Origin: an uncultured bacterium
GTDB taxonomy: Bacteria > Hydrothermota > UBA3073 > NMUJ01 > CBEVQO01
Direction of reading: 5' to 3'
Assembly: GCA_965552055.1 (NCBI GenBank)
Contig: CBEVQO010000003.1
Location: 1-64,000 of the forward strand
DNA length: 64,000 nt
In this document: piece by piece, positions 266 through 61,747 of the stretch
Layout: each line of letters starts with the position of its first letter
How positions within the stretch are numbered: position 1 is the stretch's first letter
The notes under the pieces: generated by a model
Told to the model about the DNA's origin: nothing
Seen by the model: the letters and a program-made list of their open reading frames with translations, nothing else
Databases searched by the model: none
Made by a program: the position numbers and the translations under genes

Positions 266-292
266 TTGACAGAGATATATTTTTATTAAAAT
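266..292 (+). promoter_or_regulatory. sigma70-like promoter, 15-bp spacer, leaderless start
   Basis: TTGACA(266-271)-N15-TAAAAT(287-292); ATG at 298, no SD. Confidence 0.7.
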
Positions 293-297
293 AATTA

Positions 298-1614
298 ATG
301 AATAAAATTGGAATAAGGCGTGAGGATAAGAATGAGTGGGAAAGAAGAGCACCTTTAACTCCCCATCATATAAAAGAGTTAAAAGAAAAGTATGGGATTG
401 AGTTTGTTGTTCAACCATCCGATAATTATATCCCCAGAAGGATATTTTGTGATGATGAATATAGGAAAGCAGGTGCAGAAGTAAGAGAAGATTTATCGGA
501 TTGTGATGTAATACTTGGTGTAAAAGAGATGCCAGTGAATTTCTTTGAAGAAGGCAAAACTTATATTTTCTTTTCTCATACGATAAAAGGACAGCCACAA
601 AATATGCCGATGTTAAAGCGTATGATAGAATTGAAATGCAATTTGATAGATTATGAAAAGGTTACAGATAGGTCTGGCAAGCGTCTTATTTATTTCAGTT
701 ATCATGCGGGGCTCGCAGGTGCGATAGATACATTGTGGATACTCGGTAAAAGATTTGAGTGGAAAGGTATAAAGACACCATTTTTGAAAATAAAGCAAAC
801 ACTCTGTTATAAGAATTTAAAAGATGCAAAGGAAAATTTGATTAAAGTTGGGGAAGAAATTAAGAAAGGTTTACCTGCTGATGTAGTGCCATTTATTGTG
901 GGCGTCATTGGTAGGGGTCATGTAGCACAGGGTGTAAACGAAATCCTTGAATGTTTTCCTCTCGAAGATGTGTCTCCAGAAGATATTAAAAAGGTTTTTG
1001 TAAATCCAAAGGAAGACAGAATTTACAGAATTAAGTTTTTAAAAGAGCATACGGTTGAATTGAAAGAAGGAGGAGGTTTTAAAGGGTATGATCATTTTAA
1101 TAAAAATCCACATCTTTACAAGACATGCTTTGATAAATATTTGCCTTATCTTACATGTATTTTTAATGCAATTTACTGGGATGAAGGGTATCCCAGGTTG
1201 ATAACGAAAGAGATGTTGAGAAATCTTTTTGAGGGGAGTATCTGGCGTTTGGAGATAATAGGCGATATAACATGCGATATAGGTGGTTCTGTTGAGTGCA
1301 CGGTAAAAGCTACAAATCCATCGCAACCTACTTTTGTTTATCATCCACTCACAGATGAAATAAAAGACGGCTATGAAGGTGAAGGTCTCGTTATTCTTGC
1401 GGTTGATAATTTACCCTGTGAACTACCATTAGAATCTTCTGAATTTTTCAGCAATGCGTTATATCGATTTATACCTGATGTAGCGAAAGCAGATTTTACA
1501 AAATCTTATGAGGAGATAGAGTTACCTTTTGAGGTAAAGAATGCCATGATTTTATGTCATGGTGAATTTACTCCGAATTATGAGTATATGCGGCGCTTTG
1601 TTGAAGATGTGTAG
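298..1614 (+). CDS. Lysine-ketoglutarate reductase / saccharopine dehydrogenase (AlaDh/PNT family, LKR half of AASS)
   Basis: IGIRREDKNEWERRAPLTP, ILGVKE, FFSHTIKGQ, LIDYE, DITCDIGGSVE, AVDNLPCELP motifs. Confidence 0.85.
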   Translation: MNKIGIRREDKNEWERRAPLTPHHIKELKEKYGIEFVVQPSDNYIPRRIFCDDEYRKAGAEVREDLSDCDVILGVKEMPVNFFEEGKTYIFFSHTIKGQPQNMPMLKRMIELKCNLIDYEKVTDRSGKRLIYFSYHAGLAGAIDTLWILGKRFEWKGIKTPFLKIKQTLCYKNLKDAKENLIKVGEEIKKGLPADVVPFIVGVIGRGHVAQGVNEILECFPLEDVSPEDIKKVFVNPKEDRIYRIKFLKEHTVELKEGGGFKGYDHFNKNPHLYKTCFDKYLPYLTCIFNAIYWDEGYPRLITKEMLRNLFEGSIWRLEIIGDITCDIGGSVECTVKATNPSQPTFVYHPLTDEIKDGYEGEGLVILAVDNLPCELPLESSEFFSNALYRFIPDVAKADFTKSYEEIELPFEVKNAMILCHGEFTPNYEYMRRFVEDV

Positions 1615-1626
1615 CTGGAGGGAGAG

Positions 1627-2913
1627 ATGAGCAGGGTTTTGATTTTGGGTGCAGGTATGGTGTCGAAACCGATAGTCAGATATTTGCTTTCTAAAGGTTA
1701 TGAAGTGTGGGTTGCTACTCGTACAGTATCTAAGGCAGAGGCACTGATAGAGGGTCATCCCCGTGGTAAAGCGATAAAATGCCTTGCAGATGATACACAA
1801 AAGTTGAAGGAACTGATAAAGGAATCGGACATAGTTGTAAGTTTATTACCACATGAATATCATGTTGAAGTTGCTAAGATATGCATAGAAGAGAAGAAAA
1901 ATATGGTGACAACATCTTATACTTCTTCTGAATTAGAGTCACTTGACAATCTGGCGAAAGAATCTGGCATTATAATTTTAAATGAAATGGGTTTTGACCC
2001 CGGTATTGACCATATGTTGACGATGAAAATGATAGACGGAATGAAAGAAAAGGGTTTCAAAGTTACAGGTTATTATTCCTATTGTGGTGCATTACCTGCT
2101 CCTGAGTGTGCAAACAATCCGATAAAATACAAATTTTCATGGAGTCCGAGAGGTGCTTTACAGGCATGTAAAAATCCTGCGCGGTATATGCGTAATGGTG
2201 AGATAATAGAAGTGAAAGGGGATGAACTTTTTGAGCATCGCTGGATAATAGATGTAGAAGAAATTGGCAAATTAGAAGCTTATCCCAATCGTGATTCTGT
2301 TAAATATATTGAAAAATATGGCATCCCTGGTGTGAAGAACATTTTAAGAGCCACTTTAAGGTATCCTGGCTGGTGTGAAACTATGGATTTGTTGAATAAA
2401 CTTGGTTTGCTTTCGGAAGAAGAATATGATTTCGGTGAAAAAACATGGTCTAGCTTTACGAAAGAGAGATTGAGGGAACTTCGCATAAACAGGAATCAGA
2501 TAGCGGTAAAGCGTCTCGAATGGCTTTCTTTGTTCAGTGAAGAGAAAATTGGTGGCAGAAAGATTCCACTTGATTTAATTGTTGAAAAATTTCTTTCAAA
2601 AGCCCAATATAAAGAAGGAGAAAGGGACATGTGTGTGCTGAAGATAGAAATTGAATTTGAGAAAAATGGCTCCCAAGAGAAGCATATTGCTACATTTTTG
2701 GAATTTGGAGAGATAGGCAATGAAACTGCTGTTTCCCGTGCAGTATCCCTTCCAGCTGCTGTAGCCGTGGAGCTAATTCTTAAAGGAGAGATAAAATCGA
2801 GAGGCGTAAGGATACCCGTTGATAGGGAAATTTATGAACCTGTATTAAACTCACTTGACAAAATGGGATTTTCGTTTAAATATAAAGTGAGCGCCCGTAG
2901 CTCAACTGGATAG
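1627..2913 (+). CDS. Saccharopine dehydrogenase (glutamate-forming, SDH half of AASS)
   Basis: GAGMV Rossmann, EMGFDPGIDHM, YCGALPAPE, YKFSWSPRG, EAYPNRDS, TLRYPG. Confidence 0.9.
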   Translation: MSRVLILGAGMVSKPIVRYLLSKGYEVWVATRTVSKAEALIEGHPRGKAIKCLADDTQKLKELIKESDIVVSLLPHEYHVEVAKICIEEKKNMVTTSYTSSELESLDNLAKESGIIILNEMGFDPGIDHMLTMKMIDGMKEKGFKVTGYYSYCGALPAPECANNPIKYKFSWSPRGALQACKNPARYMRNGEIIEVKGDELFEHRWIIDVEEIGKLEAYPNRDSVKYIEKYGIPGVKNILRATLRYPGWCETMDLLNKLGLLSEEEYDFGEKTWSSFTKERLRELRINRNQIAVKRLEWLSLFSEEKIGGRKIPLDLIVEKFLSKAQYKEGERDMCVLKIEIEFEKNGSQEKHIATFLEFGEIGNETAVSRAVSLPAAVAVELILKGEIKSRGVRIPVDREIYEPVLNSLDKMGFSFKYKVSARSSTG

Positions 2914-2964
2914 AGCGTCGGACTACGGATCCGAAGGTTGGGGGTTCAAATCCCTCCGGGCGCG
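2891..2964 (+). tRNA. tRNA-Arg(ACG), no encoded CCA
   Basis: GCGCCCG/CGGGCGC acceptor stem, TCGGA-CTACGGA-TCCGA anticodon arm, GGTTCAAATCC T-loop. Confidence 0.95.
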
Positions 2965-2969
2965 TAAAA

Positions 2970-3362
2970 ATGAAATTAAAGGGAATCATATTATCTACTG
3001 AAGGCGATTTCGCAGATGTGAAAATAAATGCCGAAGCATGTAAGAAATGTCCTGGTAATATTTTTTGTGGAAAGGGTGTAAAAATAGTGAGGGCGAAAAA
3101 TAAAATAGGTGCAAAGAAAGGTGATGAGGTTATAATCTATGAACCAGAAAATATTGCGATTTTCATATCGGCGCTTTTGTTTTTGTTTCCTGTTTTTGCT
3201 TTTCTTGCAGGATTTTTGCTCATGCGTATTTTGAAGTTTAAAGAGATTTTCCAATTTTTGACAGGTTTTTCTTTTCTGGGAATTTACATGTTTTTCATAA
3301 CAAGGTTTTCTGAGAAAGTTAAAGGTAAGTTTAATCCAGAGATTGTTGAAATTATTTCTTGA
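2970..3362 (+). CDS. RseC/MucC (SoxR reducing system) family membrane protein
   Basis: ACKKC...C cysteine motif, AKNKIGAKKGDEV, two TM helices, C-terminal PEIVEII. Confidence 0.8.
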   Translation: MKLKGIILSTEGDFADVKINAEACKKCPGNIFCGKGVKIVRAKNKIGAKKGDEVIIYEPENIAIFISALLFLFPVFAFLAGFLLMRILKFKEIFQFLTGFSFLGIYMFFITRFSEKVKGKFNPEIVEIIS

Positions 3363-3401
3363 CAATATGGTAATTTGTTTAAATAAGTGAAAGGAGGTAT
3401 T

Positions 3402-4076
3402 ATGTTTTATCTTTTGTTTTTGTTATTTCAGATGGAGACAGAGCGACCTACGGTAGCTGTTTTTGATTTTGAAGAGATTAGTTGCAGAGAAGGTTTAGGC
3501 AAGGGAGTTGCCGAACTTGTTCTTACTCATTTAGCCCAATCCGGTAAATTTAAAGTGGTCGAAAGGGCTCAATTGCTAAAAGTTTTGAAAGAGCAGAAGA
3601 TGGCGGTCGGTGGTCTTATAGATGAACAGACAGCTGTTGAAATGGGAAAATTACTTGGTGCAAAATATGTTGTGCTTGGTAGTGTATTTAAATCGGGTAT
3701 GATTTATACTTTGAATGCACGCTTTATAAATGTTGAGACAGCAGAAGTTGAGTTTGCAAATTCTGTGACATGTAGAAGCGAATCAGAATTTCCTTATGCT
3801 TCCAAAAAATTAATCTACGGTATGATTGCACCAAAATCCCGTCCTTCTCTTCCAGAGAAGAAAAGACCGATAGAAAAGGTGGAAAAGCCTGAGAAAAAGC
3901 GTCCTCCCAACATTGCTGCGTTTAAAAGAGGATTAGCGGAAGGGTATATTGCGGGCAGGAAAGCAGGGGTTGCGAAAGGCAGGAAAAAGGCATTAAGAGA
4001 GGGTGCACTTACAGGTTGTCTTTTGTGGACTGCTGGTATTTTGCTGATAATAGCATTGGGGGCAGGTGGGTCATGA
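3402..4076 (+). CDS. CsgG/HfaB/FlgO-domain exported protein with Gly-repeat helix and C-terminal TM anchor
   Basis: TVAVFDF...FKVVERAQL...MGKLLGAKYVVLGSV; SD AAGGAGGT places the ATG at 3402. Confidence 0.75.
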   Translation: MFYLLFLLFQMETERPTVAVFDFEEISCREGLGKGVAELVLTHLAQSGKFKVVERAQLLKVLKEQKMAVGGLIDEQTAVEMGKLLGAKYVVLGSVFKSGMIYTLNARFINVETAEVEFANSVTCRSESEFPYASKKLIYGMIAPKSRPSLPEKKRPIEKVEKPEKKRPPNIAAFKRGLAEGYIAGRKAGVAKGRKKALREGALTGCLLWTAGILLIIALGAGGS

Positions 4077-4360
4077 TAGTGTTTTTATTTTTGCTTGCAA
4101 TAAATGAACAGAGACAGCCCAGCTTCCATAAAGATAAAATAGAATTTGCTCAGCGATTGCAACGCCCTGTGCTCCGCAGGATTGCTAAAGAAATCCCGAA
4201 TGACCCGAGAACTGCTTACAGAGCTGGCTATCAAAGGGGCTTCTCAAAAGGTTACAAAGATGGTTTTCGTGCAGGGAGAAGGTCAGCGACATACTGGTTT
4301 GGATGCCTGCTCGGTTTAACATTAGGTCCTGTTGGCTATCTGATAGCGTTATTCTTTTAA
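4073..4360 (+). CDS. Small membrane protein with YxxGYxxG repeats
   Basis: ATGA overlap with upstream stop; hydrophobic N-terminus; AYRAGYQRGFSKGYKDGFRAG; C-terminal TM. Confidence 0.65.
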   Translation: MIVFLFLLAINEQRQPSFHKDKIEFAQRLQRPVLRRIAKEIPNDPRTAYRAGYQRGFSKGYKDGFRAGRRSATYWFGCLLGLTLGPVGYLIALFF

Positions 4361-4371
4361 AGGAGGAAAAA

Positions 4372-4758
4372 ATGACAAAAGTACCTGAAGACCTGTTGTA
4401 TACAAAAACACATGAATGGGTGAAGATAGAGGATGATACAGCGATTGTTGGCATTACTGATTATGCCCAAAGTGAGTTAGCCGATATTGTGCATGTTGAG
4501 CTCCCTGATGTTGGCAGTAAGTTATCAAAGGGCGATGCTTGTGGCACGATAGAGGCAGTGAAGACAGTTGCCGACCTTTACAGTCCTTTATCAGGTGAGG
4601 TAATAGAGGTGAACGAAAAGGTAAAGGAAGCACCTGAAATCATAAATAGAGACCCTTATGGTGAAGGATGGATGATTAAATTGAAAATCGAGAAAAAAGA
4701 AGAAATTGAGGAACTATTGAAACCGGAAGATTACAAAAAATTAATAGAAGAGCATTAA
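4372..4758 (+). CDS. gcvH: Glycine cleavage system H protein
   Basis: YTKTHEWV, GITDYAQ, IEAVKTV lipoyl-Lys, INRDPYGEGWM; SD AGGAGG. Confidence 0.95.
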   Translation: MTKVPEDLLYTKTHEWVKIEDDTAIVGITDYAQSELADIVHVELPDVGSKLSKGDACGTIEAVKTVADLYSPLSGEVIEVNEKVKEAPEIINRDPYGEGWMIKLKIEKKEEIEELLKPEDYKKLIEEH

Positions 4759-6765: not shown

Positions 6766-6810
6766 GAGTAAAAATGATTGACAAAGAAATTATTTGTAGA
6801 AAAATGAAAG

Positions 6811-11777: not shown

Positions 11778-13178
11778 TTATCCCTCCTTTCTGAAGATTA
11801 GCACAAATTCCTCATGCATTGTATTTCGTATGCCTTTTATTGGTTTTTTTATTTCTCTAACAAGGTTTAACCCATATGTCGCACCGAATTCTTTGATTTT
11901 GTTTTCAAGTCTTATACCACCTGTCTGTATATCGTTTGAGCCAATTATTATTACGGCGTACTTGCCAGCCTTTAATACTCTTGAAATTTCTGACATAACT
12001 TTGCTCATATCATCAAAATATTTTTGTAATTTTTCTTTTCTGCTCCTACCGTTTAATCCGATCATCTCGTTTTTTAATTTATCAACATCAAACCCTAGAT
12101 ATTCCAATTGTGGTCTATCGTTTTCAGCATAATCTATCGCGAAAGAGTAAGGTGGAGATGTTATTACACCATCCACTGAAGCATCCTTTATCATTGATAA
12201 ATCTCGTGCATCACCAAATTCTATTTTCCCTTTACCTAATTTAAGATTTAATTCCTTAGAAATAGAAAGAAAACTTTTAACCTGTTTAACATATCTACTT
12301 AATACTTGAGGAAATAGTTGCTTTATACTTTTTGTAGTTCTACGTGCATACCCCATGGAATCTAGAAATGCTAATAAAAATAATCTCTTTATTTTACTTT
12401 CTTCGTCTTCAGCAAAAAGTAATTCATTTTTAATCTGTTTTGTTGTTAGGAATTCATTGATTATTTCTTTTGGATTTTTTAATACTTTATCCAACAATTC
12501 TAAACTTAAACTTAGCGATTCTAGTTTTACTTTTGACATAAAACATGCAAAAGGGTTTTTGTCTATACCTATAGAATTAATCCCAATTAATGCCGCTTCA
12601 ACATTCAATGTTCCACTTCCACACATAGGGTCTAATACAGTTTCGCCTTCCTTAATACCTAATATATTCATTAAAGCCTTAATCATTTGAGGATGAAACT
12701 TTCCTCTGTATGGAAATAATCCGTGAGTGGCATATCCAGTTGAATATATCCCATTCATAAAATATGATATCGTGGCTTTTGAACGATTCTCGAATAGTGC
12801 TTTACTTGTTTCCTTGCATATTTTAGAATGAATTGTTTCTATTCCATCTATAGACTTAAAATAAGCACCTCTCTTTATTAATTCTTCTTTTGAGAGTATT
12901 TTTGATTCATAATAAGCAAATTCTAACTCAAAAATTTCTGTTACACTGGGTAATAACTCAAAACTGTTAGGGAATAACATTTCGGAAATTGTCGGTAAGC
13001 TTAGAGTAGATAAACCATTAAATGTACTTTTACTCACCATTCTTTTCCACCTTTTTAGTTCATTTCTCATGAAATTCTCAATTTGTTTAGATATTATCAA
13101 TCCTTTTTTATCACAATACTCCTTGTATTTCTCGTAAATTTCAGCATCAACTGAAAGTGTAATCCTTTTGTTGACCAT
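11778..13178 (-). CDS. N4-cytosine-type DNA methyltransferase (alpha order) with N-terminal RHH-like domain
   Basis: THGLFPYRGKFHPQM, LDPMCGSGT, ITSPPY; N-terminal KRITLSVDAEIYEKYKEYC...ISKQIENFM. Confidence 0.85.
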   Translation of the reverse strand: MVNKRITLSVDAEIYEKYKEYCDKKGLIISKQIENFMRNELKRWKRMVSKSTFNGLSTLSLPTISEMLFPNSFELLPSVTEIFELEFAYYESKILSKEELIKRGAYFKSIDGIETIHSKICKETSKALFENRSKATISYFMNGIYSTGYATHGLFPYRGKFHPQMIKALMNILGIKEGETVLDPMCGSGTLNVEAALIGINSIGIDKNPFACFMSKVKLESLSLSLELLDKVLKNPKEIINEFLTTKQIKNELLFAEDEESKIKRLFLLAFLDSMGYARRTTKSIKQLFPQVLSRYVKQVKSFLSISKELNLKLGKGKIEFGDARDLSMIKDASVDGVITSPPYSFAIDYAENDRPQLEYLGFDVDKLKNEMIGLNGRSRKEKLQKYFDDMSKVMSEISRVLKAGKYAVIIIGSNDIQTGGIRLENKIKEFGATYGLNLVREIKKPIKGIRNTMHEEFVLIFRKEG

Positions 13179-13237: not shown

Positions 13238-13374
13238 AAGGCGACGGTGAACATTTCACTTAACTTGTTCATATCTTCTTTCTAACAGACCATTGCTTTT
13301 TGCACTGACACGAATATTTCCTTATCATCATAATTGTATAATTGGAAAGACAAAATGTCAAGCTTTTTTATGTT

Positions 13375-13720: not shown

Positions 13721-13747
13721 TTGACATTGTCATTATTGGATTATAAT
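13721..13747 (+). promoter_or_regulatory. sigma70-like promoter, 15-bp spacer
   Basis: TTGACA-N15-TATAAT; in-frame ATG at 13754. Confidence 0.75.
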
Positions 13748-19747: not shown

Positions 19748-19808
19748 ATTATAATTGAAATATTATTTTGGCAAGTTTTTATTGACAATGAAGAGAAAAT
19801 TGTATAAT
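19748..19808. promoter_or_regulatory. Back-to-back divergent promoters, both with 15-bp spacers
   Basis: Minus: TTGCCA(19774-19769)-N15-TATAAT(19753-19748), GTG 19742; plus: TTGACA(19782)-N15-TATAAT(19803-19808), ATG 19817. Confidence 0.75.
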
Positions 19809-24258: not shown

Positions 24259-24285
24259 TTTACAAAACAGATAATCTATTAAAAT
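24259..24285 (+). promoter_or_regulatory. sigma70-like promoter, 15-bp spacer
   Basis: TTTACA-N15-TAAAAT; GTG at 24291. Confidence 0.6.
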
Positions 24286-32391: not shown

Positions 32392-32418
32392 ATTATATCT
32401 AAAATACTCAATTGTCAA
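32392..32418 (-). promoter_or_regulatory. sigma70-like promoter (15-bp spacer) for tRNA-Lys/tRNA-Ala/dnaX
   Basis: TTGACA(32418-32413)-N15-TATAAT(32397-32392). Confidence 0.75.
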
Positions 32419-34591: not shown

Positions 34592-34638
34592 ATTGTAATC
34601 AAAAATTAAGATTGACAACTAAAAATTTTAATTATTTT
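34592..34638. promoter_or_regulatory. Divergent 15-bp-spacer promoters with overlapping -35 boxes
   Basis: Minus: TTGTCA(34618-34613)-N15-TACAAT, ATG 34586; plus: TTGACA(34612-34617)-N15-TATTTT, GTG 34644. Confidence 0.6.
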
Positions 34639-38538: not shown

Positions 38539-38565
38539 ATTATAATCGAAAAATAAATTTGTCAA
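38539..38565 (-). promoter_or_regulatory. sigma70-like promoter, 15-bp spacer
   Basis: TTGACA(38565-38560)-N15-TATAAT(38544-38539). Confidence 0.75.
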
Positions 38566-47356: not shown

Positions 47357-47383
47357 ATTTTAATCAAAAAATAATTTTAGCAA
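47357..47383 (-). promoter_or_regulatory. sigma70-like promoter, 15-bp spacer
   Basis: TTGCTA-N15-TAAAAT; ATG at 47351. Confidence 0.55.
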
Positions 47384-50289: not shown

Positions 50290-50384
50290 AATTTATTTTC
50301 TAAATTCTGGGGTTGTCAAGCTATAAGGATATTAGGAGATTTTGTTTAATGTAGGTATCTGAAATTATTTGTTTTAAAACAAAA

Positions 50385-53300
50385 TTATATTTCAATGCAA
50401 ATGGGATATGCATTTATATGTCCCTCTTTCCAAAGTTTTGCTGGATTTTTAATCTTTTTTAATTTTGCATCTTTTGTTCCAGCGCCATAAACTCTATAAA
50501 TGTAAAATTTATTTCCTTTCTCTTTCATTAGCCTCCATTGATCTTTTGACACTTCAAACCAAGTTTTTTCGAATTCTTTTGTTGATTTAACCTCGATAAA
50601 AATCTCGTCCTCATTTTCTGTAATCTTTATATCATAGTGTTGCCCACTTTCTCCATTCTTGTTTAACCATACTACTTCTGCAATTACCCTACCATCTTTT
50701 TCTAATTTAAAGCCTTGTTCAGTATTTAATAAAGATGCATCAGGATACTTTCTCGTCATTTCATCTTTAATGCACCTAAAAGCATATTCTTCTCCCCATC
50801 GCCCAATATCTTCTTTGGCTTTTTTACTTAAAACTTCGATAGATCGTTCCCAATCTCCATGTGATCTGGTTGCGGACTTTTTATCTGAAAGTTTTGACTC
50901 TTTATCGGTTATTTTTGTTTCTTTTCCTCCTTCATGCGTGTATTTGTATTCTTCTATTCTAATAGGAGCTTTTTCTGGAGAAATTTCTGGTGTCCATTCT
51001 TTTTTAACCCGAGTATCAATGCTTGTTTCTGCAAGTTCCTCACCCTCTTCTGCTTTGGCTTTTTTGAAGACTTCAATCTTCCCCTTTTCCTCAGCAGCAA
51101 TCCTGCTTTCTACTTCCTTTGTTTCCTCTTTTGTCACCTCTACTTCTCCCTTTTCTTTCTTTACTCTTTTAGAAACCCTCTTTAAAATTTCCTCTTCTGA
51201 TTTTGGTAATTGCCTTATCTTTTTAGCCTTCATTATATCCTCTGCACTGGAAACATTACTCATTATGTTCATTATAAAATCATCAAGACCTTTAATTTCA
51301 CCAAATACTTTAGAAAATTCCACAGCGATATCATAGATACCCGCATTGTTCTTCATATATATGCAATTCTTGTCTTTGTGGTAGACGCATTTTCTTTCAG
51401 CCTCTCTGCTTATTTCTGTCCATTCATTAACTTTTATTGAATATTTTACTTTCAGATTGTCAGTAACATAAACTTCAATCGCTCCAATTTTTTTAAGCGT
51501 TCCATTTCCCTTAAGTTTTTCATATTCTGCATATTCCCTCCAGTAAAGATATCGTAAAACATATGGTATAACATCTTGAATGAGTTTAGTACGTTTATCA
51601 TCTTTTGAAAGCTTTGTCTTTTCTACCAAAGGCACAATCTCAATACTTTCAGATAAATAATTGAGGTTGCAAGCTTTAATAAAGAATTTTATTTTATCTG
51701 GGTTATAGTTTTCTGGTAGCCAGAGAAAACCGATATCCTTCTCGTCTTTGAATAATTCATAAAGTTCATTATTATCGTTTATGAAAATATTTCCATCGTT
51801 AGACCAGAACTTACCTTTATTAATGAGAAAAATCGATTTTTCGATAAAATCATTCCACCAATCTTCCTCGGATATGGGGTTTTCAATTTTATCTGGATTT
51901 AAGTTACGATTCAGTTCTTCGTATATTCTTATGATTATCTTTTCATCTTCGCTTGATACATCGCTTTTTTTAGATATAGAGCATAAAACATCCGCATAAT
52001 CTTTGGGTATTGGTTTCTCTCTTATTTCAAGTTTTTCTAGGAAGAATTTCTTAAGTTTTGGATAATGCTTTTCTAAATATGCTCTATTTTCACCGAAGAT
52101 CTTGCTTACATCTTTCCACAAGACTTCATCTGCCCGATAATATTTATTGTTTGTACCAGGGACAAAAATCAGAGGATATTCCCTAAATGCATCTTTTATT
52201 TTGACAGGATCTTCTTCAAAATGCTCATCTAAGAATTTATACAATTTTTCAAATTTTTTCTTGTCTTCGCTTTTGCGCTCAATAAGTGCTTTTAGGTAAT
52301 TTAAGACATTCTCTACATTAGCTTGGGTATTAATACCTAAAGCTCTGATAAAATCTTCATTTTCGATTTTTACTGCTAGGTATGGAACAGTGTTACCTAA
52401 AACTTCGCGGATTTCTGGTTTATCTAAAAATACCTCTGAAGGTTTTGCTAAAGCATTTTGGGCGGTTGGGATTTTTAATTTTTCTTTTAGGTCTCTTATA
52501 AATGACGAAGACAATGTTTTATGTCGTTCATAATAATAAAACCACCGATAATCCATTTTCAGATAATTTGAATACTTGCTATTCCAATATTTGTCCAAAA
52601 TTCTTAATAAAATTTCAGCTTTTTTAAAATCAAGCTTTTCTAACAATTCATCAAATTCCTTAGATAATCTCCAATCCTTAACCTTATGCCCCCAAGTAGA
52701 ATATTCTTTTTCTTCAGTAGTGGGGTATTTGTCATTAGAAGATATATATCCTTCATAATATTTTACTCTCGGTATATCGTTTACTCCTATTTTCAAGAGA
52801 AATTTCTTCCATTCTTCAACTTTTTTACTCTTCTTTTTCTCTAATTCTTCAATCTGTTTCTCAATTTTTCTAACCTCTTTTCTATGTTTCTTTTTCCACT
52901 TCTTACTTTTCTCCTGTAGTTTGCTTTTTAACTCCGAAATTTCATTATCAATTCGTTTTATGTCTTGTTCAAGATAACAAAAATGCACGAAACTTACATC
53001 TATACCTTCAAATAATGTCTCTAAATCATTTTCATTACCATAACTCTTTGGTAAATATACATTCTCTGGAGAGTCATACCATTCTTTATCCTCCTCATTA
53101 TTAATGCGGATAAGAAGCGATTCTCTGAGACGTTTTAATGGGTCTTCTTTAGTCTTCCGAGATGCTTTATTAGCATTTAACTTTCTGTCACTTTCTCTCT
53201 CGTATTTGTCTATATTATCTTTGATATATTTGACATATCCGATAAGAGTTCTTGGATCTTTTTGTTTCCATCCTTTACTTTCATAAACAGGTAAAATATG

Positions 53301-54983
53301 GCTTTCAATGATCTCGTAAGGGTCTGCTTGTTTAAGTCCTAATCTCTTGAGAAATTCTAAAATTTTATCTCTTTCTTCTTTATCTTGCTTTGAAACAATA
53401 TCTATGATTGCCTTTTCAATTACTCTGAGCTCATCTTCAAAGCCATATACTGATTTTCTCTCCAGCGGGAAGAATACAGTGCCTTTATTTATAGAAGTAA
53501 GTTCTCCATTCTCCAATTTTATAATCTCCAGATTCTTTAATCGTTCTAATTGCTCGTCAGATAGCTTTTTCTTGCTAAGATAACTAAATAACTTTGCAAA
53601 CCATTCTTTATTCTGGTTTTCGATCCATTCCTTATTCTCCAAACACTTAATTAGGTCATTAATTGAAAAATTTTTAACTCCCAGTTTTTGAAGAACTTGC
53701 TTTTTAACTTTTATTTTATCCGATATGTATTCTTTTCCAAAAAATTTCTGGAGATCTTCATTGGTTACTATTTCTTTTATTTCATCATCACCAGTTAAAA
53801 CCTCTGAAGGTTTCTTCCACTTGTTTGTTTTTGTCAAAATACATGCTTCTTTCTTGAGTTCTTTATATATTTCTTCTACTACCGGTGAAAAGAAATCGTC
53901 TTTTATTTCTTTTTTGAGGGGAAGATAATTGTAAAAGCCGTATTTTAAATTTTCATCATTTTTAAATTCTCTAACAGCATCTAAGAACACTTTTATGATA
54001 GAACCTCTAAGCCATTCGTTCCATTTATTGTCTTTGATAATATCTTCACGAGTTATTGGTAGAAGAAAATCGGCTTGGATGATAAATTTAAATCCATACT
54101 CACGAACTGGAAGATATGCAAAGACAAATTGCTCATTAGAAGTATCGGGAGAATAATCTTCTTTTAAGGGAAATGCCAAAATAATCTCTGTTTCACTAAC
54201 ATCTCTTCGCCTTTCTTCATCCATATCCTGTGGAACCTTAAATAACTTTTTAATTACTTTCCAATAGCTTTTTTTTCCATTGTAAATAACCTCGACTATT
54301 CCATTTTTCTCATGCAGTTCCATCCTTTTAACTTTTTTACCTTTCTCCACAATTTCAATTACTTTCAACTTTTTAAGAAATAGCAAAAGCGATGGATGAA
54401 TTTCATCAATATACTTGCTTATCTTGTTTCTTATTTCAGGTTTAAGATATAGAACAATATTTGTCTGCGCTGGATCAACAAAATCAGGAATTTCATCAAT
54501 CCATTCAGGGATTATCATCGTTACAGGATTGCTTTCATCGTAGTTGAAACCAAATTGGAAACCGTTTGAATAAATCTGCACCCTATTTGCGATCATAAAA
54601 ACAGATTTAAATCCAATACCCTTTTCACCGATATAACCCAACGCTTTCGTTTTTGTTGTTTCACCTATACCACACAATGCCCAAACATTTTTCTCTTCAA
54701 ATCCTTTTTCATTGTTTTGAATTACCAACCAATCAGAGCTTATTATAAACCTAATTTTGGGACGAATATTTTCTTCATATTTGTTATCCTCTGCATTCTG
54801 GATTAATTCAAAAACAAAATGGGGATTTCTTGTGTGAATTTCTTTAGCAAGTTTAGAGGCATTTTTCAAAATTCTTTCTTTATCTTTAAGTGCAGCTCTT
54901 TGCGCTTCTGTTAAATCTTTAGTATCAAGCCCGATTCCAAATCTTATTTTTCTTATCTTCTCAATGACTTTTTTCTTGTTCAT
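50385..54983 (-). CDS. Sacsin/NO VEIN-like HATPase fused to C-terminal DUF3883 (PD-(D/E)xK) nuclease domain
   Basis: FELIQNAED, IGEKGIGFKSVF, FIIQADF; C-terminal GRWGEE...YDI...FIEVKST. Confidence 0.85.
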   Translation of the reverse strand: MNKKKVIEKIRKIRFGIGLDTKDLTEAQRAALKDKERILKNASKLAKEIHTRNPHFVFELIQNAEDNKYEENIRPKIRFIISSDWLVIQNNEKGFEEKNVWALCGIGETTKTKALGYIGEKGIGFKSVFMIANRVQIYSNGFQFGFNYDESNPVTMIIPEWIDEIPDFVDPAQTNIVLYLKPEIRNKISKYIDEIHPSLLLFLKKLKVIEIVEKGKKVKRMELHEKNGIVEVIYNGKKSYWKVIKKLFKVPQDMDEERRRDVSETEIILAFPLKEDYSPDTSNEQFVFAYLPVREYGFKFIIQADFLLPITREDIIKDNKWNEWLRGSIIKVFLDAVREFKNDENLKYGFYNYLPLKKEIKDDFFSPVVEEIYKELKKEACILTKTNKWKKPSEVLTGDDEIKEIVTNEDLQKFFGKEYISDKIKVKKQVLQKLGVKNFSINDLIKCLENKEWIENQNKEWFAKLFSYLSKKKLSDEQLERLKNLEIIKLENGELTSINKGTVFFPLERKSVYGFEDELRVIEKAIIDIVSKQDKEERDKILEFLKRLGLKQADPYEIIESHILPVYESKGWKQKDPRTLIGYVKYIKDNIDKYERESDRKLNANKASRKTKEDPLKRLRESLLIRINNEEDKEWYDSPENVYLPKSYGNENDLETLFEGIDVSFVHFCYLEQDIKRIDNEISELKSKLQEKSKKWKKKHRKEVRKIEKQIEELEKKKSKKVEEWKKFLLKIGVNDIPRVKYYEGYISSNDKYPTTEEKEYSTWGHKVKDWRLSKEFDELLEKLDFKKAEILLRILDKYWNSKYSNYLKMDYRWFYYYERHKTLSSSFIRDLKEKLKIPTAQNALAKPSEVFLDKPEIREVLGNTVPYLAVKIENEDFIRALGINTQANVENVLNYLKALIERKSEDKKKFEKLYKFLDEHFEEDPVKIKDAFREYPLIFVPGTNNKYYRADEVLWKDVSKIFGENRAYLEKHYPKLKKFFLEKLEIREKPIPKDYADVLCSISKKSDVSSEDEKIIIRIYEELNRNLNPDKIENPISEEDWWNDFIEKSIFLINKGKFWSNDGNIFINDNNELYELFKDEKDIGFLWLPENYNPDKIKFFIKACNLNYLSESIEIVPLVEKTKLSKDDKRTKLIQDVIPYVLRYLYWREYAEYEKLKGNGTLKKIGAIEVYVTDNLKVKYSIKVNEWTEISREAERKCVYHKDKNCIYMKNNAGIYDIAVEFSKVFGEIKGLDDFIMNIMSNVSSAEDIMKAKKIRQLPKSEEEILKRVSKRVKKEKGEVEVTKEETKEVESRIAAEEKGKIEVFKKAKAEEGEELAETSIDTRVKKEWTPEISPEKAPIRIEEYKYTHEGGKETKITDKESKLSDKKSATRSHGDWERSIEVLSKKAKEDIGRWGEEYAFRCIKDEMTRKYPDASLLNTEQGFKLEKDGRVIAEVVWLNKNGESGQHYDIKITENEDEIFIEVKSTKEFEKTWFEVSKDQWRLMKEKGNKFYIYRVYGAGTKDAKLKKIKNPAKLWKEGHINAYPICIEI

Positions 54984-55204
54984 ACTCAAATTTGTTCAGA
55001 TATGTTCTCAAATGAAGAATACGTGTAAACTATTCGCATACACCCTGATTGGATATTGTTCTTATTTTTATCCTTATATTCATCTTCTTTTAAAATACTA
55101 TTAAGTGAGTTAGACCTTAAAGTTTGCATCATAATTATATAATCAAAAATAAGGGGTGTCAAGAGGAAATTTATTATGAGCGGGTGCGTTATACTACATT
55201 TTGA

Positions 55205-55231
55205 TTGACATTCTTCCGTTATGGTTATAAT
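55205..55231 (+). promoter_or_regulatory. sigma70-like promoter, 15-bp spacer
   Basis: TTGACA-N15-TATAAT; in-frame ATG at 55238. Confidence 0.75.
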
Positions 55232-56160: not shown

Positions 56161-56167
56161 GGATAAA

Positions 56168-56278: not shown

Positions 56279-58642
56279 TTATTTTTTAAAAACTATTTTA
56301 TTATTTTCTGCTACTGCTATTACTTTATCGCCTTCTTTTATTTTGCCGTCAATTATTTCGAGTGATAAAGGCACTTCTATTAAACTTCTTATCGCCCTCT
56401 TTAAAGGTCTTGCACCGTAATCCGGATTGTAGCCCTCTTTTATCAGTAAATCTTTTGCTGATTTATCGAGCTCTATTTCGATGCCCTTTTCTTTAAGTGC
56501 TTTCTTTACATATTCAAATTCAATATCAACGATTTTTTCGAGATGCTCTCTTTGCAATGGTTTAAAGATTATTATTTCGTCTATTCTATTTAAAAATTCG
56601 GGTTTGAAATAGCCCTTTAATTCTTCCATTACTGCCTGTTCGTAATTTGGGTCTCCTGCGTATCTTGAGCCAATGTTTGAAGTCATAATTATTATTGTGT
56701 TTTTAAAATCTACTGTTCTGCCCTGGCCATCTGTTAATCTCCCATCGTCCATTATCTGCAGTAAGATATTGTGGACATCTGGGTGTGCTTTTTCTATTTC
56801 ATCAAAAAGAATGACTCTGAAAGGTCTTCTTCTTACAGGTTCTGTTAATTGTCCGCCTTCTTCGTATCCCACATATCCCGGTGGTGCACCTATAAGTCGT
56901 GAGACAGTGTGCCTCTCCATATATTCTGACATATCTATTCTTATCATGGCTGATTCCGAATCAAATAGTATCTCTGCCAGTGCTTTCGCAAGCAGTGTTT
57001 TACCTACGCCTGTGGGTCCCAAGAACATAAAAACACCAATAGGTCTTTTTGCATCTTTAAGCCCTGCTCTTGCTATTCTTATTGCATTGCAAACAGCTTT
57101 TACAGCGTGCTCCTGATTTACAATACGCTTATGCAGATACTCTTCTAACTTTAACAATCTATCTTTTTCTGTCATTTTTATTCTGTAAACGGGTATGCCT
57201 GTCCATTGTGCTATGATTTCTGCGATGTCATCTTCTGTAACCGTGTCTTTTACTTTTGCTTCTTTCATCCATTTTTCTTTTTTCTCATTTAATTCTTTTT
57301 GTATCTTATCTGCTTCTTCTGCTAACCTTTTTGCGAGTTCAAAATCTCCTTTGTCTGCTGCTCTTTTGCCTCTTTCTGTTAAATCTTTTAATTTTTCTTC
57401 CAGTTCTTTTATTTCTTTGGGTCTCTGTGACATTAAAAGTTTAAGTCGTGATGATGCTTCGTCAATAAGGTCTATTGCTTTGTCTGGCAAATATCTTTCT
57501 GTTATATATCTGTGTGATAATCTTATTGCTGCTTCTATTGCTTTATCCGTGATTTTGACCCCATGATGCTGTTCGAATCTTTCTTTTAGTCCTTTCAATA
57601 TTTCGATTGCTTCTTCTGGTGATGGTTCTCTCACATATACTGGCTGGAATCGCCTTGTAAGAGCTGCGTCTTTTTCGATGTATTTCCTGTATTCGTTTAA
57701 AGTTGTAGCTCCTATGCATCTTATTTCACCTCGTGCGAGTAGTGGTTTCATCATGTTAGATGCGTCAACCGCGCCTTCTGCTGCACCTGCACCCACAATC
57801 GTATGAATTTCATCTATAAACAAAATTATTTTGCCCTGGGATTTTTTTAACTGTTCTAAAACTGCTTTCATCCTTTCTTCAAATTGTCCTCTGAATTGTG
57901 TTCCTGCAACGAGTGCCCCTATATCCAGTTCGATTATTCTTTTATCTTTTAAATCATCGGGTACTTCGCCTTTAACTATTTTTTGTGCCAATCCTTCAAC
58001 AATTGCGGTCTTACCAACGCCTGCTTCACCTACCAGCACGGGATTGTTTTTTGTTTTCCTTGTAAGTATTTGCATTACTCTGTTTATTTCTTCTTCTCTT
58101 CCTATTACCGGGTCGAGTTTTCCTTCTTTTGCTAACTTTGTAATATCTCTTCCGAATTTCTCGAGTATTTTATATTTTTCTTCGCCTGTTGGCTCGGATA
58201 ATTGAGCATCTCCTCTTACTGCATAAAGTGCTCTTAAAAATTCTTCTTTTTCTATTCCGAATTCTTTTATCAATTTGTGACCCATTTCTATTATTGCGAG
58301 GAATATATGTTCGCAACCAGTGTATGCATCTTTCCATTCTTTAGCTATCTGTTGTGCTCTTCTCAAAACTTTTTCGGCATCCGGAGTAATATAAATTTGG
58401 GCGATTGGCATACTTCCAGTTATCTGTGGTAGATTTTTTATTTCTTCTTCAACTCTTCTTTTAAACATTTCAACATTTATGTTCATTTTCTGGAGAGCTT
58501 GCGGGACGATGCCCTCATCTTGAGTTACGAGTCCGTAAAGAAGATGTAGCACATCGAGTTCAGGGTTTCTCTCTTCCATTAATTTTTCCTGTGCTGTCCT
58601 TATTGCATCCTGAGCTCTTTCTGTAAATTTTTCAAATCTCAT
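56279..58642 (-). CDS. Clp/Hsp100 ATPase (ClpC/ClpB-like)
   Basis: Clp N-domain, [32 protein letters not shown]; short UVR-type middle domain. Confidence 0.93.
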
Positions 58643-58695
58643 TTTCCCTCCTTAAAGATTATTAATCATTTTTTCAATAAGTCAACAAAAAGTTG

Positions 58696-58722
58696 TTGAC
58701 ATCTCTTTTTTTCAATTATAAT
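58696..58722 (+). promoter_or_regulatory. sigma70-like promoter, 15-bp spacer
   Basis: TTGACA-N15-TATAAT; in-frame GTG at 58729. Confidence 0.75.
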
Positions 58723-58728
58723 TACATC

Positions 58729-60075
58729 GTGAATGAAAGTAATATTTATGAAGGTATAAGATTTATTAAGGCTACGCTGTTGACCTTTATATCTCAAGTT
58801 ATTATTTTGATTTTTACTTTATTATCGTCGATTTTACTTGCCAGATTGCTGGGTCCTTATGGTAAAGGAGTTTATACGATTTCTACTCTACTTCCTCTAA
58901 CAATTGTTATTTTTTTAAATATAGGAGTGAGTCCTGCTACAACTTATTATATTGCGAAAAAGGAATTTGATGTAGGGAGAGCGATAATAAATAATTTGTT
59001 TTTAGGAAGTTTGTTAGGAATAGTGGGATATTTCTTGGGTATAGGTGCTATTTTTATTTTTAAAAAAACTTTTGTTAATATACCGAAAAGATTTTTACTA
59101 TTATCATTAATTATTATACCCCCGCATTTAATTTATAGTTTTTGGAATAGTATTTTTCTCGGGATACAGGATTTTAAAAAATATAACTTCATTCAGGTGT
59201 TAAGATTAAGTTTCTTTTTATCTATTTTATTGGTATTGGTAGGTTTATTGAAATTAGATTTAAAGGGAGCTTTATTAAGTTTTATTTTACATTGGTTTTT
59301 GGTTGATTTTGTTTTGTTTTTCTGGTTGAGGATGGAGTTAAAATGTATGGTGAAATGTTTAGATATTGGATATTTGAAAAAAGTTGTGTCATACGGTTTG
59401 CAAGCATATTTAGGTAATGTTTTAGCATTTTTGAATTACAGGATTTCATTTTTCTTATTGAATCATTATCTTAATCCGGAGGCTGTTGGCTATTATTCAG
59501 CCAGCATTCCTATTGCTGAGGTTGTGTGGATTTTTTCTTTTGCAGCGAGCACGGTATTGTTTCCTAAAATTTCGGCATTAGAAGAACAGAAAAGAAAGCA
59601 ATTGACACCTTTTGTGGTGAAAAATGTATTTATTTTGACTCTTTTTTTTGCATTCTTTTTGTTTCTATTTGCGAAACATGTTATAATTCTTTTATATTCT
59701 TCTACTTTTTTGCCTTCTGTGAAGCCTTTTAGGATATTATTGATAGGTACAATTTTTTTAAGCCTATCGCGTGTATTTGCAAATGACATAGCAGGAAGGG
59801 GTAAACCTGTTTTAAATTCTATAGTTTCCGGGATTGCTCTGGGAGTAAATTTATTGTTAAATATTATTTTAATTCCGAAATATGGAATTCAGGGTGCAGC
59901 TCTTGCGACTACGGTGACTTATGCCGTGATTTTGATATTTAGATTAGCTATTTATCTCAAACTCTCGGGCAACACTATCAAAACTATTTTTGTGCTAAAT
60001 CGTAAAGATTTTTCATTTTATAAAGGGATACTTTTGGCGTTTTTAAAAAATAAAAAAGTTAAGCTTGACATTTAA
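58729..60075 (+). CDS. Wzx-type oligosaccharide flippase
   Basis: LARLLGPYGKG, multiple TMs, VGYYS, LIPKYGIQGAALA. Confidence 0.88.
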   Translation: MNESNIYEGIRFIKATLLTFISQVIILIFTLLSSILLARLLGPYGKGVYTISTLLPLTIVIFLNIGVSPATTYYIAKKEFDVGRAIINNLFLGSLLGIVGYFLGIGAIFIFKKTFVNIPKRFLLLSLIIIPPHLIYSFWNSIFLGIQDFKKYNFIQVLRLSFFLSILLVLVGLLKLDLKGALLSFILHWFLVDFVLFFWLRMELKCMVKCLDIGYLKKVVSYGLQAYLGNVLAFLNYRISFFLLNHYLNPEAVGYYSASIPIAEVVWIFSFAASTVLFPKISALEEQKRKQLTPFVVKNVFILTLFFAFFLFLFAKHVIILLYSSTFLPSVKPFRILLIGTIFLSLSRVFANDIAGRGKPVLNSIVSGIALGVNLLLNIILIPKYGIQGAALATTVTYAVILIFRLAIYLKLSGNTIKTIFVLNRKDFSFYKGILLAFLKNKKVKLDI

Positions 60076-60091
60076 ACAAAATGATTATGCT
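60065..60091 (+). promoter_or_regulatory. sigma70-like promoter, 15-bp spacer
   Basis: TTGACA-N15-TATGCT; in-frame GTG at 60097. Confidence 0.65.
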
Positions 60092-60096
60092 TGAGA

Positions 60097-61716
60097 GTGG
60101 GGGAGAAGTTAATTATAATAGGGCTTGATGGAGCCACTTTTAGGATAATTAATCCTTTACTTACGAAAAATTTTTTACCTAATTTCAAATATTTAATAGA
60201 AAATGGTGTTGCCTTTCCATTATTAAGTACAATACCTTATGCCACTATTCCTGCCTGGCCTTCCTTTATGACGGGTGCGAATCCTGGCAAACATGGTGTA
60301 TTTGATTTTTTTAAAAAGGAAAATGGAGTAAAAAGAATAGTGAGAAGCACAGATATTGCTATGGAAACTTTGTGGGAGATTTTAAGTAGATATGGTAAGC
60401 GGAGTATAATTGTAAATGTGCCCTGCACTTTTCCACCATTAGAAATTGAAGGCATAATGATAAGCGGTATGCTTACCCCTAGTGGAGCACAATTTTGTTA
60501 TCCTTCTGATATTCAAGATACAATAAATGAGATATCCGGGGGCTATCGTATAAACGAACGGGCAGATTTAAAGGGAGAAAAATTGTTGATGGATGTTTAC
60601 GATGTCAGCGAGAGGCAGATTAAAACTTTTTCAACCCTGTTAAAGCGTGAGAAATGGGATTTTGCAATGCTGATGCTCCGTGGTACAGATGTTTTATCGC
60701 ATTTCTTCTGGAAGGAGAGTAATAAAATAGGTGAGTTTTATAGGTATGTTGATGAATTTATAGGGAAGATAATTACCGATTTTCCCGATGCGACCATTTT
60801 TATAATATCTGACCATGGCTTTCAGGAGCAAAAATATGATTTTCATATAAATAAATGGTTGATGGAAAAGGGATGGCTTGCATTTAAGGATAAGCTCGAT
60901 GAATCACGAATGAGAGAAATAATAAAGTTAGATGGAAGAGAAGCACTATTGGGAGGAAATATTTTTAAGATTTTTATTTATAAATTGTGGAATTTGTTGC
61001 CCGTGGATATGAAAAATAATTTAAAATATTTTTACAGATTTTGGGCAAAATTACCTTTAAGTATTAGAAAGAGATTTTATGTGCATACAAATATTGAGAT
61101 AGACAGAAGTAAATCAAAAGTATCGGCTATTCAGGACTTTACACTTGAAACGAAGGCGATAAAGATACTGGTCGATGATCGAGGAGAATATAAGAAAATA
61201 AGGGATAAATTAATCTCCGAGTTAAGCGAGATAAAAAATCCGGAGAATGGTGAGAGGATAGTTAAAAAGGTATATCTAAAAGAGGAGATATATGAAGGTC
61301 CTTTTATAAATGATGCACCTGACATTATATTGGAATTAGCGGAAGGTTATGGTTTAACGAACAAGATTTTTGATTCTTCAATAGTAACAAAGCGTGCAGA
61401 GATAAGGGGCTGTCATCATCGGGAAGGGATATTTATTTGCTATGGTAAAGATATTACAAAAATGGGTTATACTTTTCAAAGGGCTTTTTTATGGGATATA
61501 ATGCCGACAGTTCTTCATTATTTTGATATACCTATACCTGCTGATGTTGATGGCAAACCGATAATTGAGATTTTTAAAAAAGATTCAAAATTTTATCGTT
61601 CACCCTCATTTACCGAGAGTCAAAAACCTTTGCGTTTGATGAAAAAGGTAAATGAAATTACAGGAAAAGGAGAAAAAGAAATAAGGGAGAGATTAGAAAA
61701 TTTAGGCTATCTATAA
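60097..61716 (+). CDS. Alkaline phosphatase superfamily (type I phosphodiesterase/nucleotide pyrophosphatase) protein
   Basis: IIGLDGAT, STIP..T.PAWPSFMTGANPGKHGVFDF, SDHGF, ERLENLGYL. Confidence 0.88.
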   Translation: MGEKLIIIGLDGATFRIINPLLTKNFLPNFKYLIENGVAFPLLSTIPYATIPAWPSFMTGANPGKHGVFDFFKKENGVKRIVRSTDIAMETLWEILSRYGKRSIIVNVPCTFPPLEIEGIMISGMLTPSGAQFCYPSDIQDTINEISGGYRINERADLKGEKLLMDVYDVSERQIKTFSTLLKREKWDFAMLMLRGTDVLSHFFWKESNKIGEFYRYVDEFIGKIITDFPDATIFIISDHGFQEQKYDFHINKWLMEKGWLAFKDKLDESRMREIIKLDGREALLGGNIFKIFIYKLWNLLPVDMKNNLKYFYRFWAKLPLSIRKRFYVHTNIEIDRSKSKVSAIQDFTLETKAIKILVDDRGEYKKIRDKLISELSEIKNPENGERIVKKVYLKEEIYEGPFINDAPDIILELAEGYGLTNKIFDSSIVTKRAEIRGCHHREGIFICYGKDITKMGYTFQRAFLWDIMPTVLHYFDIPIPADVDGKPIIEIFKKDSKFYRSPSFTESQKPLRLMKKVNEITGKGEKEIRERLENLGYL

Positions 61717-61720
61717 ATGC

Positions 61721-61747
61721 TTGACATTTTATTTATTCCGTTATAAT
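61721..61747 (+). promoter_or_regulatory. sigma70-like promoter, 15-bp spacer
   Basis: TTGACA-N15-TATAAT; ATG at 61753. Confidence 0.75.

Follow-up and report, generated by a model that had tools for sequence, protein, structure and literature searches.

The housekeeping promoters of the uncultured bacterium analysed here place their −35 and −10 boxes 15 bp, and not 17 bp, apart. This had been claimed from a sequence-only reading of the window, the first 64 kb of contig C3 of genome G000 (2.23 Mb, 15 contigs, 35% GC, 97% complete), and it is upheld across the genome: a housekeeping promoter class with a 15-bp spacer is strongly supported in this lineage by the combination of spacer counts with three independent positional anchors, the transcription starts being placed by sequence position. 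Perfect TTGACA-N-TATAAT pairs occur 7, 121, 27, 7 and 4 times at spacers of 14, 15, 16, 17 and 18 bp, with 1.5 expected at each from independent hexamer frequencies. The sigma70-type hexamers therefore stand far above chance (121 vs 1.5), and the genome-wide histogram, which had been proposed as a check, has its mode at 15 bp rather than at 17 ± 1 bp. The same mode is seen with the looser −10 patterns TAnAAT (12, 261, 49, 21 and 9 at 14–18 bp; 5.8 expected) and TAnnnT (45, 416, 93, 106 and 48; 46 expected). When the best −10 box was picked without a spacer prior behind 502 intergenic TTGACA boxes, 273.5 fell at 15 bp, 41 at 16 bp and 20.5 at 17 bp. The sites lie where promoters should lie, upstream of operons and stable-RNA genes and pointing into them: 220 of the 261 strict (TAnAAT) sites aim into the 5' end of a gene, as judged from a simple longest-ORF (open reading frame) set of 1896 ORFs with no curated annotation, and of the 17 tRNA genes (among 46) with both TTGACA and TAnnnT in the 60 nt before them, 16 read at 15 bp. 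The rRNA promoter region is readable at 15 or 18 bp. The 15-bp class is a variant of the sigma70 promoter, real and both genome-wide and order-wide.

The register of the two boxes is fixed by the genes that follow them. An in-frame start codon lies within 80 nt downstream of 327 of the 416 TAnnnT sites. ATG codons are most frequent 5 nt (86), 6 nt (45) and 7 nt (22) past the −10 box, and a further, Shine-Dalgarno-led maximum lies at 17–18 nt. A start codon right at such short offsets is the pattern of leaderless mRNAs, and the ATG would therefore mark the transcription start, which would lie 5–7 nt after the −10 box and often at the start codon itself. Leaderless mRNAs are thus likely to be common in this genome; we note that a start codon follows the −10 box at 4–8 nt in 219 of the 416 15-bp promoters and that G is enriched directly before it. 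Blind to the −35 box, 231 genes carry TA[ATC]AAT 5–6 nt before the start codon, and TTGACA with at most one mismatch is found 15 bp upstream in 144 of them, 16 bp upstream in 18 and 17 bp upstream in 1. Blind to the −10 box, the start codons behind the 502 intergenic TTGACA boxes are concentrated at distances of 26 nt (113) and 27 nt (45), where TA occupies the 15-bp position in 138 of 158 sites, with T at 95% and A at 94% in the 26-nt class. Indeed, the ATG offsets of apparent 17-bp sites peak at 3–4 nt, which is the 15-bp register. Sites with TAWAAT (253) and TAWWTT (73) share a common motif and common offsets and hence form one promoter class. Extended −10 TG at −15/−14 is not seen; rather, the promoters carry T−16 G−15 A−14 T−13, and their spacer shows weak sequence preferences, being A-rich at positions 1–2 and 6–8 and T-rich at positions 10–12.

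Within the window, all 15 sites listed in the sequence-only reading (where a minus-strand coordinate denotes the first T on that strand) read as a TTGACA-like box, 15 nt and TAnnnT. The −35 box is exactly TTGACA in 11 of them and has one or two mismatches in the other four (24259 TTTACA, 19774 TTGCCA, 34618 TTGTCA and 47383 TTGCTA). Exactly eight are perfect TTGACA-N15-TATAAT pairs, as had been claimed, and across spacers of 10–24 bp the window holds just two further perfect pairs, one at 17 bp and one at 22 bp. TTGACA-N-TAnnnT counts in the window are 1, 0, 0, 11, 0, 3, 3, 2 and 5 for spacers of 12 to 20 bp. A start codon follows 5–8 nt downstream in 13 of the 15 sites; of the other two, one precedes tRNA-Lys and one a Shine-Dalgarno (SD)-led ORF. 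The 15 sites, followed by four sites with weak −10 boxes and two copies of a repeated promoter module, are:

266..292, plus strand: TTGACA-15-TAAAAT; ATG 5 nt on, leaderless; 438-aa AlaDh/PNT-domain gene
13721..13747, plus strand: perfect TTGACA-15-TATAAT; ATG 6 nt on; 1346-aa lamin-tail/Por-secretion-tail protein
19748..19774, minus strand: TTGCCA-15-TATAAT; GTG 5 nt on, 484 aa; back to back with 19782
19782..19808, plus strand: perfect 15-bp promoter; ATG 8 nt on, 145 aa
24028..24054, minus strand: perfect 15-bp promoter; ATG 7 nt on, 4Fe-4S protein
24259..24285, plus strand: TTTACA-15-TAAAAT; GTG 5 nt on, FolD-like
32392..32418, minus strand: perfect 15-bp promoter; tRNA-Lys 7 nt on, then tRNA-Ala
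34592..34618, minus strand: TTGTCA-15-TACAAT; ATG 5 nt on, MgtE; −35 box overlaps the opposite-strand −35 box of 34612
34612..34638, plus strand: TTGACA-15-TATTTT; GTG 5 nt on, DUF4416
38539..38565, minus strand: perfect 15-bp promoter; Shine-Dalgarno-led ATG 36 nt on, 96-aa ORF
47357..47383, minus strand: TTGCTA-15-TAAAAT; ATG 5 nt on, PpiC-type rotamase
55205..55231, plus strand: perfect 15-bp promoter; ATG 6 nt on, DUF5618
58696..58722, plus strand: perfect 15-bp promoter; GTG 6 nt on, polysaccharide biosynthesis protein
60065..60091, plus strand: TTGACA-15-TATGCT; GTG 5 nt on, phosphodiesterase
61721..61747, plus strand: perfect 15-bp promoter; ATG 5 nt on, GT4 glycosyltransferase
3359..3385, plus strand: weak −10 site, TAAATA at 15 bp; ATG 16 nt on behind SD-like GGAGG, in the register of the SD-led class
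6778..6804, plus strand: weak −10 site, GAAAAA at 15 bp; adenylosuccinate lyase ATG 6 nt on
50293..50319, minus strand: weak −10 site, AAATAA at 15 bp; in-frame mfd ATGs 3 and 6 nt on
58659..58685, minus strand: TTGACT-15-TAATAA; ATG 16 nt on behind SD-like GGAGG; ClpB/ClpC-type ATPase
13333..13361, minus strand: repeated-module copy, 17-TACAAT or 15-TATACA; short ORF (19–20 aa) in the 15-bp register
55134..55162, minus strand: repeated-module copy, 17-TATAAT or 15-TATATA; short ORF (47–48 aa) in the 15-bp register

Six of these sites had been set apart as exceptions. The poor fit noted for 3359, 6778, 50319 and 58685 is real, yet the positions of their start codons place all four in the 15-bp register. 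At 13361 and 55162 the 17-bp box does look better, as had been remarked, but the ATG lies 6 nt after the 15-bp position, whereas the 17-bp box leaves 4 nt before it.

The 15-bp spacer was compared across 130 relatives (3 from the same order, 18 from the same class and 109 from the same phylum), all scored with TAnAAT; 5 + 47 genomes, most of them picked because their strict counts were low, were rescanned with TAnnnT, the other 78 relatives being covered by TAnAAT only, and spacers of 14 and 18 bp were covered in G000, G001, G065 and G017 together with a partial listing for the order. With TAnAAT no relative exceeds 17 sites at 15 bp, and this strict scan missed the sister family within the order (4/4/2, 9/2/0 and 4/1/0 at 15/16/17 bp). 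With TAnnnT, all three sister genomes peak at 15 bp (G001 99/46/26, G070 89/35/20 and G105 62/27/14, with reversed-pattern controls of 11–19), so that the mode is 15 bp in all four genomes of the order. The −10 box of the sister family is T-rich: 733 kb of G001 gives TTGACA-N15-TAWWTT with no extended motif. None of the 49 genomes outside the order that were rescanned with TAnnnT has a 15-bp peak, and such a peak is upheld in none of the 127 phylum genomes outside the order, which peak at 16 or 17 bp by family, many of them mixed. The 15-bp spacer is therefore restricted to one order within the phylum genomes compared. Two relatives in which 15 bp was top or tied with TAnAAT, G112 (4/1/2) and G008 (17/17/6), lost that standing with TAnnnT (21/18/25 and 69/205/178).

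Elsewhere in the phylum some families have sharp set points. Family f4 is sharply at 17 bp (G055, 3/7/277 at 15/16/17 bp), and families f17, f24 and f27 are sharply at 16 bp (G017 6/249/21, G066 4/260/30 and G076 5/166/42). The 16-bp relative G017 keeps the 5–6 nt leaderless offset of G000, which indicates that it is the −35 box, and not the −10 box, that moves between spacers. In a quick RpoB tree of 28 rows, G000 and the three genomes of the same order form a clade (SH-aLRT 96), and the 16-bp lineages form a separate clade. Scans of metagenomes for the 15-bp pattern (118 of 120 loci analysed) returned just near-identical copies of G000 and no new lineage, the extra promoters at these loci peaking at 17 bp (67 vs 8 at 15 bp), and scans of 116 viral loci gave no contig rich in 15-bp promoters (51 at 17 bp vs 16 at 15 bp). 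Nine relatives (G078, G088, G112, G115, G121, G048, G063, G093 and G118) show almost no TTGACA-TAnnnT excess at 15–17 bp and may use another spacer or no −35 box.

The sigma factors of G000 comprise a 575-aa RpoD encoded after dnaG, a short paralogue of 265–275 aa, a FliA-like sigma and small others. The coordinates of the RpoD gene are:

L001:244-1971, equivalent to G000 C7:57373-59100: RpoD

The RpoD has the architecture of a group 1 sigma (Pfam regions 1.1, 1.2, 2, 3 and 4, with dnaG directly upstream), its nearest named matches, at ~50% identity, are labelled WOR-3 or Cloacimonadota, so that G000 is probably a WOR-3 genome, and its predicted fold matches E. coli sigma70 chains (AlphaFold model, mean pLDDT 80, pTM 0.49, which is uninformative on domain spacing). 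Aligned to E. coli sigma70, it keeps N383, R385, F419, T429, Y430, W433, W434, R436, Q437, R451 and H455, as well as the RERIRQ helix of region 4.2. Within residues 438–458, 13 of 21 positions are changed, including R441K, V454P and E458N. Residues 441, 454 and 458 (R441, V454 and E458) are named as the readers of the extended −10 TG in PMC5101437, and R451 is placed at spacer position −18 in PMC3130263. The three substitutions match the shifted motif T−16 G−15 A−14 T−13, found instead of T−15 G−14; the 17-bp relative G065 (E458) has the canonical TRTG, and the 16-bp relative G017 (D458) has TG at −16/−15. The divergence of the RpoD is local, with identities to class relatives, compared with those among them, of 44% vs 78% in regions 2.4–3.0 and 34 vs 52 in region 3.2, and of 33% vs 32% in the non-conserved region, which serves as a control. 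In addition, region 1.1 is duplicated in tandem (residues 2–64 and 65–128, 38% identity, E 1e-12), a duplication shared by none of 25 further RpoDs from the phylum and by 1 of 119 additional homologues, and the sigma finger has lost most of its acidic residues and gained one residue.

A different sigma is found in the sister family. Two protein queries and a Pfam region 4 search found no long RpoD in any of its three genomes, and dnaG is followed by a gene other than rpoD in both genomes where dnaG was found. The sole group 1/2-like sigma found in the three genomes is the short paralogue, which no NCBIfam family except the superfamily recognizes above cut-off. It lies in the order htrA – sigma – M23 peptidase in both G000 and G001. 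Thus, the same 15-bp spacer goes with two −10 boxes and probably with two sigmas in this order, which points beyond any one sigma, although the short sigma may instead have taken over in both families. G129 was considered as a counter-example (short sigma alone, 17-bp peak) and rejected, dnaG also not being found there and the block probably being unassembled. We also note that rpoB of the sister family has no rpoC behind it, the genes lying on different contigs (L090 = G001 C18:3099-6668, L040, L213-L215).

In the core polymerase, the order shares departures at 9 of the 373 conserved columns of RpoB and at 7 of the 194 of the N-terminus of RpoC. One of them, an E-to-D change in the β' zipper at a position that we take to be E42 in E. 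coli numbering, is present in all four genomes of the order and in the 16-bp genomes G017, G066 and G061, and in no 17-bp row; since other 16-bp families keep the E, it offers only a hint of a contribution to the short spacer. The β' zipper contacts the spacer near −17/−18, according to PMC5101437.

With moderate confidence, we suggest that the 15-bp sites are the everyday promoters of a holoenzyme with an intrinsically shorter ruler, involving a remodelled RpoD here and probably the core as well. The domain that reads the −35 box is predicted to sit ~2 bp (~7 Å, ~70°) nearer the −10 box than its E. coli counterpart does. The reader in G000 would be the long RpoD, which retains its box-reading residues and appears to have been retuned at its contacts with the spacer (regions 2.4–3.0 and 3.2) while gaining a second region 1.1. 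Since the 15-bp spacer of the sister family comes with only the short paralogue found and with a different −10 box, part of the ruler likely resides in the core polymerase and goes back to the common ancestor of the order; candidates would be the β' zipper, the flap and the route that the sigma 3.2–4 linker takes through the exit channel. Of the causes proposed in the sequence-only reading, an altered geometry of sigma or RNA polymerase (RNAP) is thus the one we favour, with the notable changes located in regions 2.4–3.0, 3.2 and 1.1 of RpoD and not in region 4 or the β flap. Neither region 4 nor the flap of RpoB has an indel specific to the order.

Several observations weigh against the holoenzyme reading. 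Besides the lack of an order-specific flap indel, the changes shared by the order in RpoB and RpoC are for the most part conservative substitutions, several of them also present in relatives with 16- or 17-bp spacers, so that the contribution of the core is pinned to no residue. No notable acceleration is seen in region 4 of RpoD (54 vs 59%), and the non-conserved region of the protein may be saturated at ~33%, which weakens that control. The RpoD scores 284.8 against a cut-off of 354 for TIGR02393 and 369.7 against 555 for PRK05658, and differs from the RpoD consensus at 17 of the 37 columns by which RpoD and the short paralogue can be told apart (0–7 in other RpoDs); the low scores and the consensus departures also fit decay after replacement. 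Finally, the three sister genomes are near-identical, and the order thus holds just two independent lineages, and they are fragmented into 80–130 contigs (99, 87 and 66% complete). More tentatively, the ruler may be a heritable trait that changes stepwise (17, 16, 15) and is set mainly by the core, such that the core of the order was retuned to 15 bp and then read by two sigma paralogues, one remodelled (G000) and the other replacing RpoD (sister family).

Decay after replacement would be expected if the short (~270 aa) paralogue had taken over the housekeeping role in the order's ancestor and were itself what sets the 15-bp spacer, with RpoD decaying in G000 and lost in the sister family. We regard this as unlikely. 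It would account for the short paralogue being the sole group 1/2-like sigma of the sister genomes and syntenic with that of G000, for a core without striking change, and for the long branch of the G000 RpoD (47–52% to all relatives vs 49–81% among relatives); in addition, the 3.2–4.1 linker has 43–44 residues in the short paralogue, 46 in most RpoDs and 48 in the G000 RpoD. However, the short paralogue is widespread in 16- and 17-bp families, which show no 15-bp class: G065 (313 kb) has 1 site at 15 bp vs 3 at 17 bp, G017 (341 kb) has 0, and in genomes fixed sharply at 17 bp the 15-bp counts stay close to those of the controls. A linker of the same 44 residues is also found in class relatives whose peak lies at 16–17 bp. 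Moreover, the −10 box of G000 (TAWAAT 253 vs TAWWTT 73) resembles that of RpoD-bearing relatives and not that of the sister family, the paralogue is just 48% identical between the two families, and the G000 RpoD is intact and has gained a domain.

An unusual DNA topology had also been proposed, whereby an ordinary holoenzyme would act on a relaxed or positively supercoiled chromosome whose overtwisting makes 15 bp the best fit. G000 encodes a reverse gyrase (C4:82892-86143), and its sole GyrA-like protein (C1:27242-29584), located apart from its B subunit (C4:72209-74089), has no GyrA box and scores under the gyrA cut-off (817 vs 877), which suggests such a chromosome; an amino-acid-based estimate puts growth near 69 °C. 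Degenerate GyrA boxes occur also in G078 and G088. Relaxation favours 15-nt spacers in E. coli, according to PMC9303308, and the preference for 15 over 16 bp is sharper in G000 (416/93) than in G001 (99/46). Nevertheless, by the equation given in PMC9303308 the best spacer on relaxed DNA is 16 bp; 15 bp overtakes it only above a superhelical density of ~+0.03 and becomes optimal at +0.065. Topology alone as the cause is not supported by comparison: the sister family peaks at 15 bp with an intact GyrA box, none of the 22 genomes with reverse gyrase outside the order has a 15-bp peak, G020 (reverse gyrase, no gyrA found) peaks at 17 bp (10/20/58 at 15/16/17 bp), and twist leaves the 2-bp shortfall in length in place. 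We therefore consider this explanation improbable; at most, a relaxed or positively supercoiled state of the chromosome might make the preference for 15 bp in G000 sharper, and would not create it.

Slightly less probable still is an obligate, lineage-specific factor that binds the polymerase or the spacer and repositions sigma region 4 or reshapes the spacer, as a mirror image of the MerR-type activators at 19 bp. Such a factor would fit the small changes in the core, given that two sigmas nonetheless appear to share the spacer, and the weak sequence preferences of the G000 spacer; these preferences are absent in G001, however, and no candidate gene is known, no screen for order-specific genes having been made. 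The known candidate for the obligate cofactor of the sequence-only reading, a stand-alone CarD, was not found, G000 and the order giving just the Mfd match and 35 of 36 genomes searched giving long Mfd-type or weak matches only. Least probable, and by our estimate very improbable, is a mis-registration in which the true elements lie 17 bp apart, shifted by two bases, or TTGACA is the site of a regulator: although the starts are placed by inference and the rRNA promoter region is ambiguous, the position two bases 3' of the −10 box has no conserved T (39% vs 99%) and half of the sites would begin with A, the blind tests recover T and A at the 15-bp position, both sigmas keep the TTGACA-reading helix of region 4.2 unchanged, and the same TTGACA stands at 16 or 17 bp in relatives.

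The 15-bp class resembles the canonical promoters of sigma70/SigA (E. coli, B. subtilis) in its TTGACA and TATAAT boxes, the C before the −35 box, the A/T-rich upstream tract, a start ~5–7 nt after the −10 box (here placed by position) and a group 1 sigma with conserved base-reading residues, but differs in its modal spacer of 15 instead of 17 bp and in its shifted extended −10 motif. With the 16-bp lineages of the phylum (G017, G066 and G076) it shares a sharp, family-specific set point, and with G017 the TG at −16/−15 and the leaderless offset; sigma region 3.0 is altered there too in several families (V454A, E458D). In contrast, the spacer of these lineages is one base longer, they belong to a separate RpoB clade, and other 16-leaning families keep V454 and E458. 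The primary sigma of Bacteroidota is a short sigma-A that uses TTTG / TAnnTTTG promoters, with a spacing corresponding to 16–18 bp. The sister family is similar in having a short sigma without region 1.1 apparently in the place of RpoD and a T-rich −10 box (TAWWTT), but retains the full TTGACA and, in G001, has no TTTG tail after the −10 box. MerR/SoxR-type promoters, with spacers of 19–20 bp according to PMC9303308, likewise form a class defined by a spacer other than 17 bp. These are, however, few regulated promoters with a longer spacer that need a distorting activator, whereas here the whole housekeeping set has a shorter one and no activator is known.

We found no report of a housekeeping spacer mode of 15 bp in the literature, with subscription journals largely outside the coverage. 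The ProFinder preprint (bioRxiv 10.64898/2026.09.23.753901) gives a median of 17 bp for all 49 genomes with mapped transcription start sites, with 99.2% within 16–18 bp, and concludes that the canonical spacer is kept domain-wide, its domain-wide scan having allowed just 16–18 bp; WOR-3 goes unmentioned in its main text. PMC12641261, with a model trained on E. coli, gives 17 bp as the predominant spacer across species. Two cross-phylum surveys thus treat 17 bp as essentially fixed, and a search limited to 16–18 bp leaves this lineage invisible. The existence of a 15-bp order among families of 16 or 17 bp in the same phylum means that the ruler evolves, and it provides matched natural variants of sigma and core for the question of what in the holoenzyme measures the distance between the −35 and −10 boxes; the sister family, in which RpoD was not found, separates sigma from core as no model organism does. 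These findings suggest consequences for promoter prediction in uncultured bacteria and a possible route to promoters orthogonal to the E. coli polymerase.

Divergent promoter pairs in the window share or abut their −35 boxes (34612/34618, 19774/19782, 58685/58696 and 55162/55205), and the 7-bp stretch 34612–34618 reads TTGACA in one direction and TTGTCA in the other. The repeated promoter module ends in ATTATGATG, is preceded by a GC-rich repeat and is present in two copies in the window and four on contigs C2, C7, C9 and C10. Short ORFs of 12–47 aa, four of them with MQTL as their first residues, start at five copies, and a 336-aa ORF starts at the C9 copy; the short ORFs may for this reason be remnants of a mobile gene start. 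Approximately 170–180 nt behind a copy of the module lie, in one case, the gene for a 1534-aa sacsin/NOV_C-domain protein (window 50385-54989, minus strand) and, in the other, that for a DNA methylase (window 11778-13178, minus strand), both of which are possibly defence genes.

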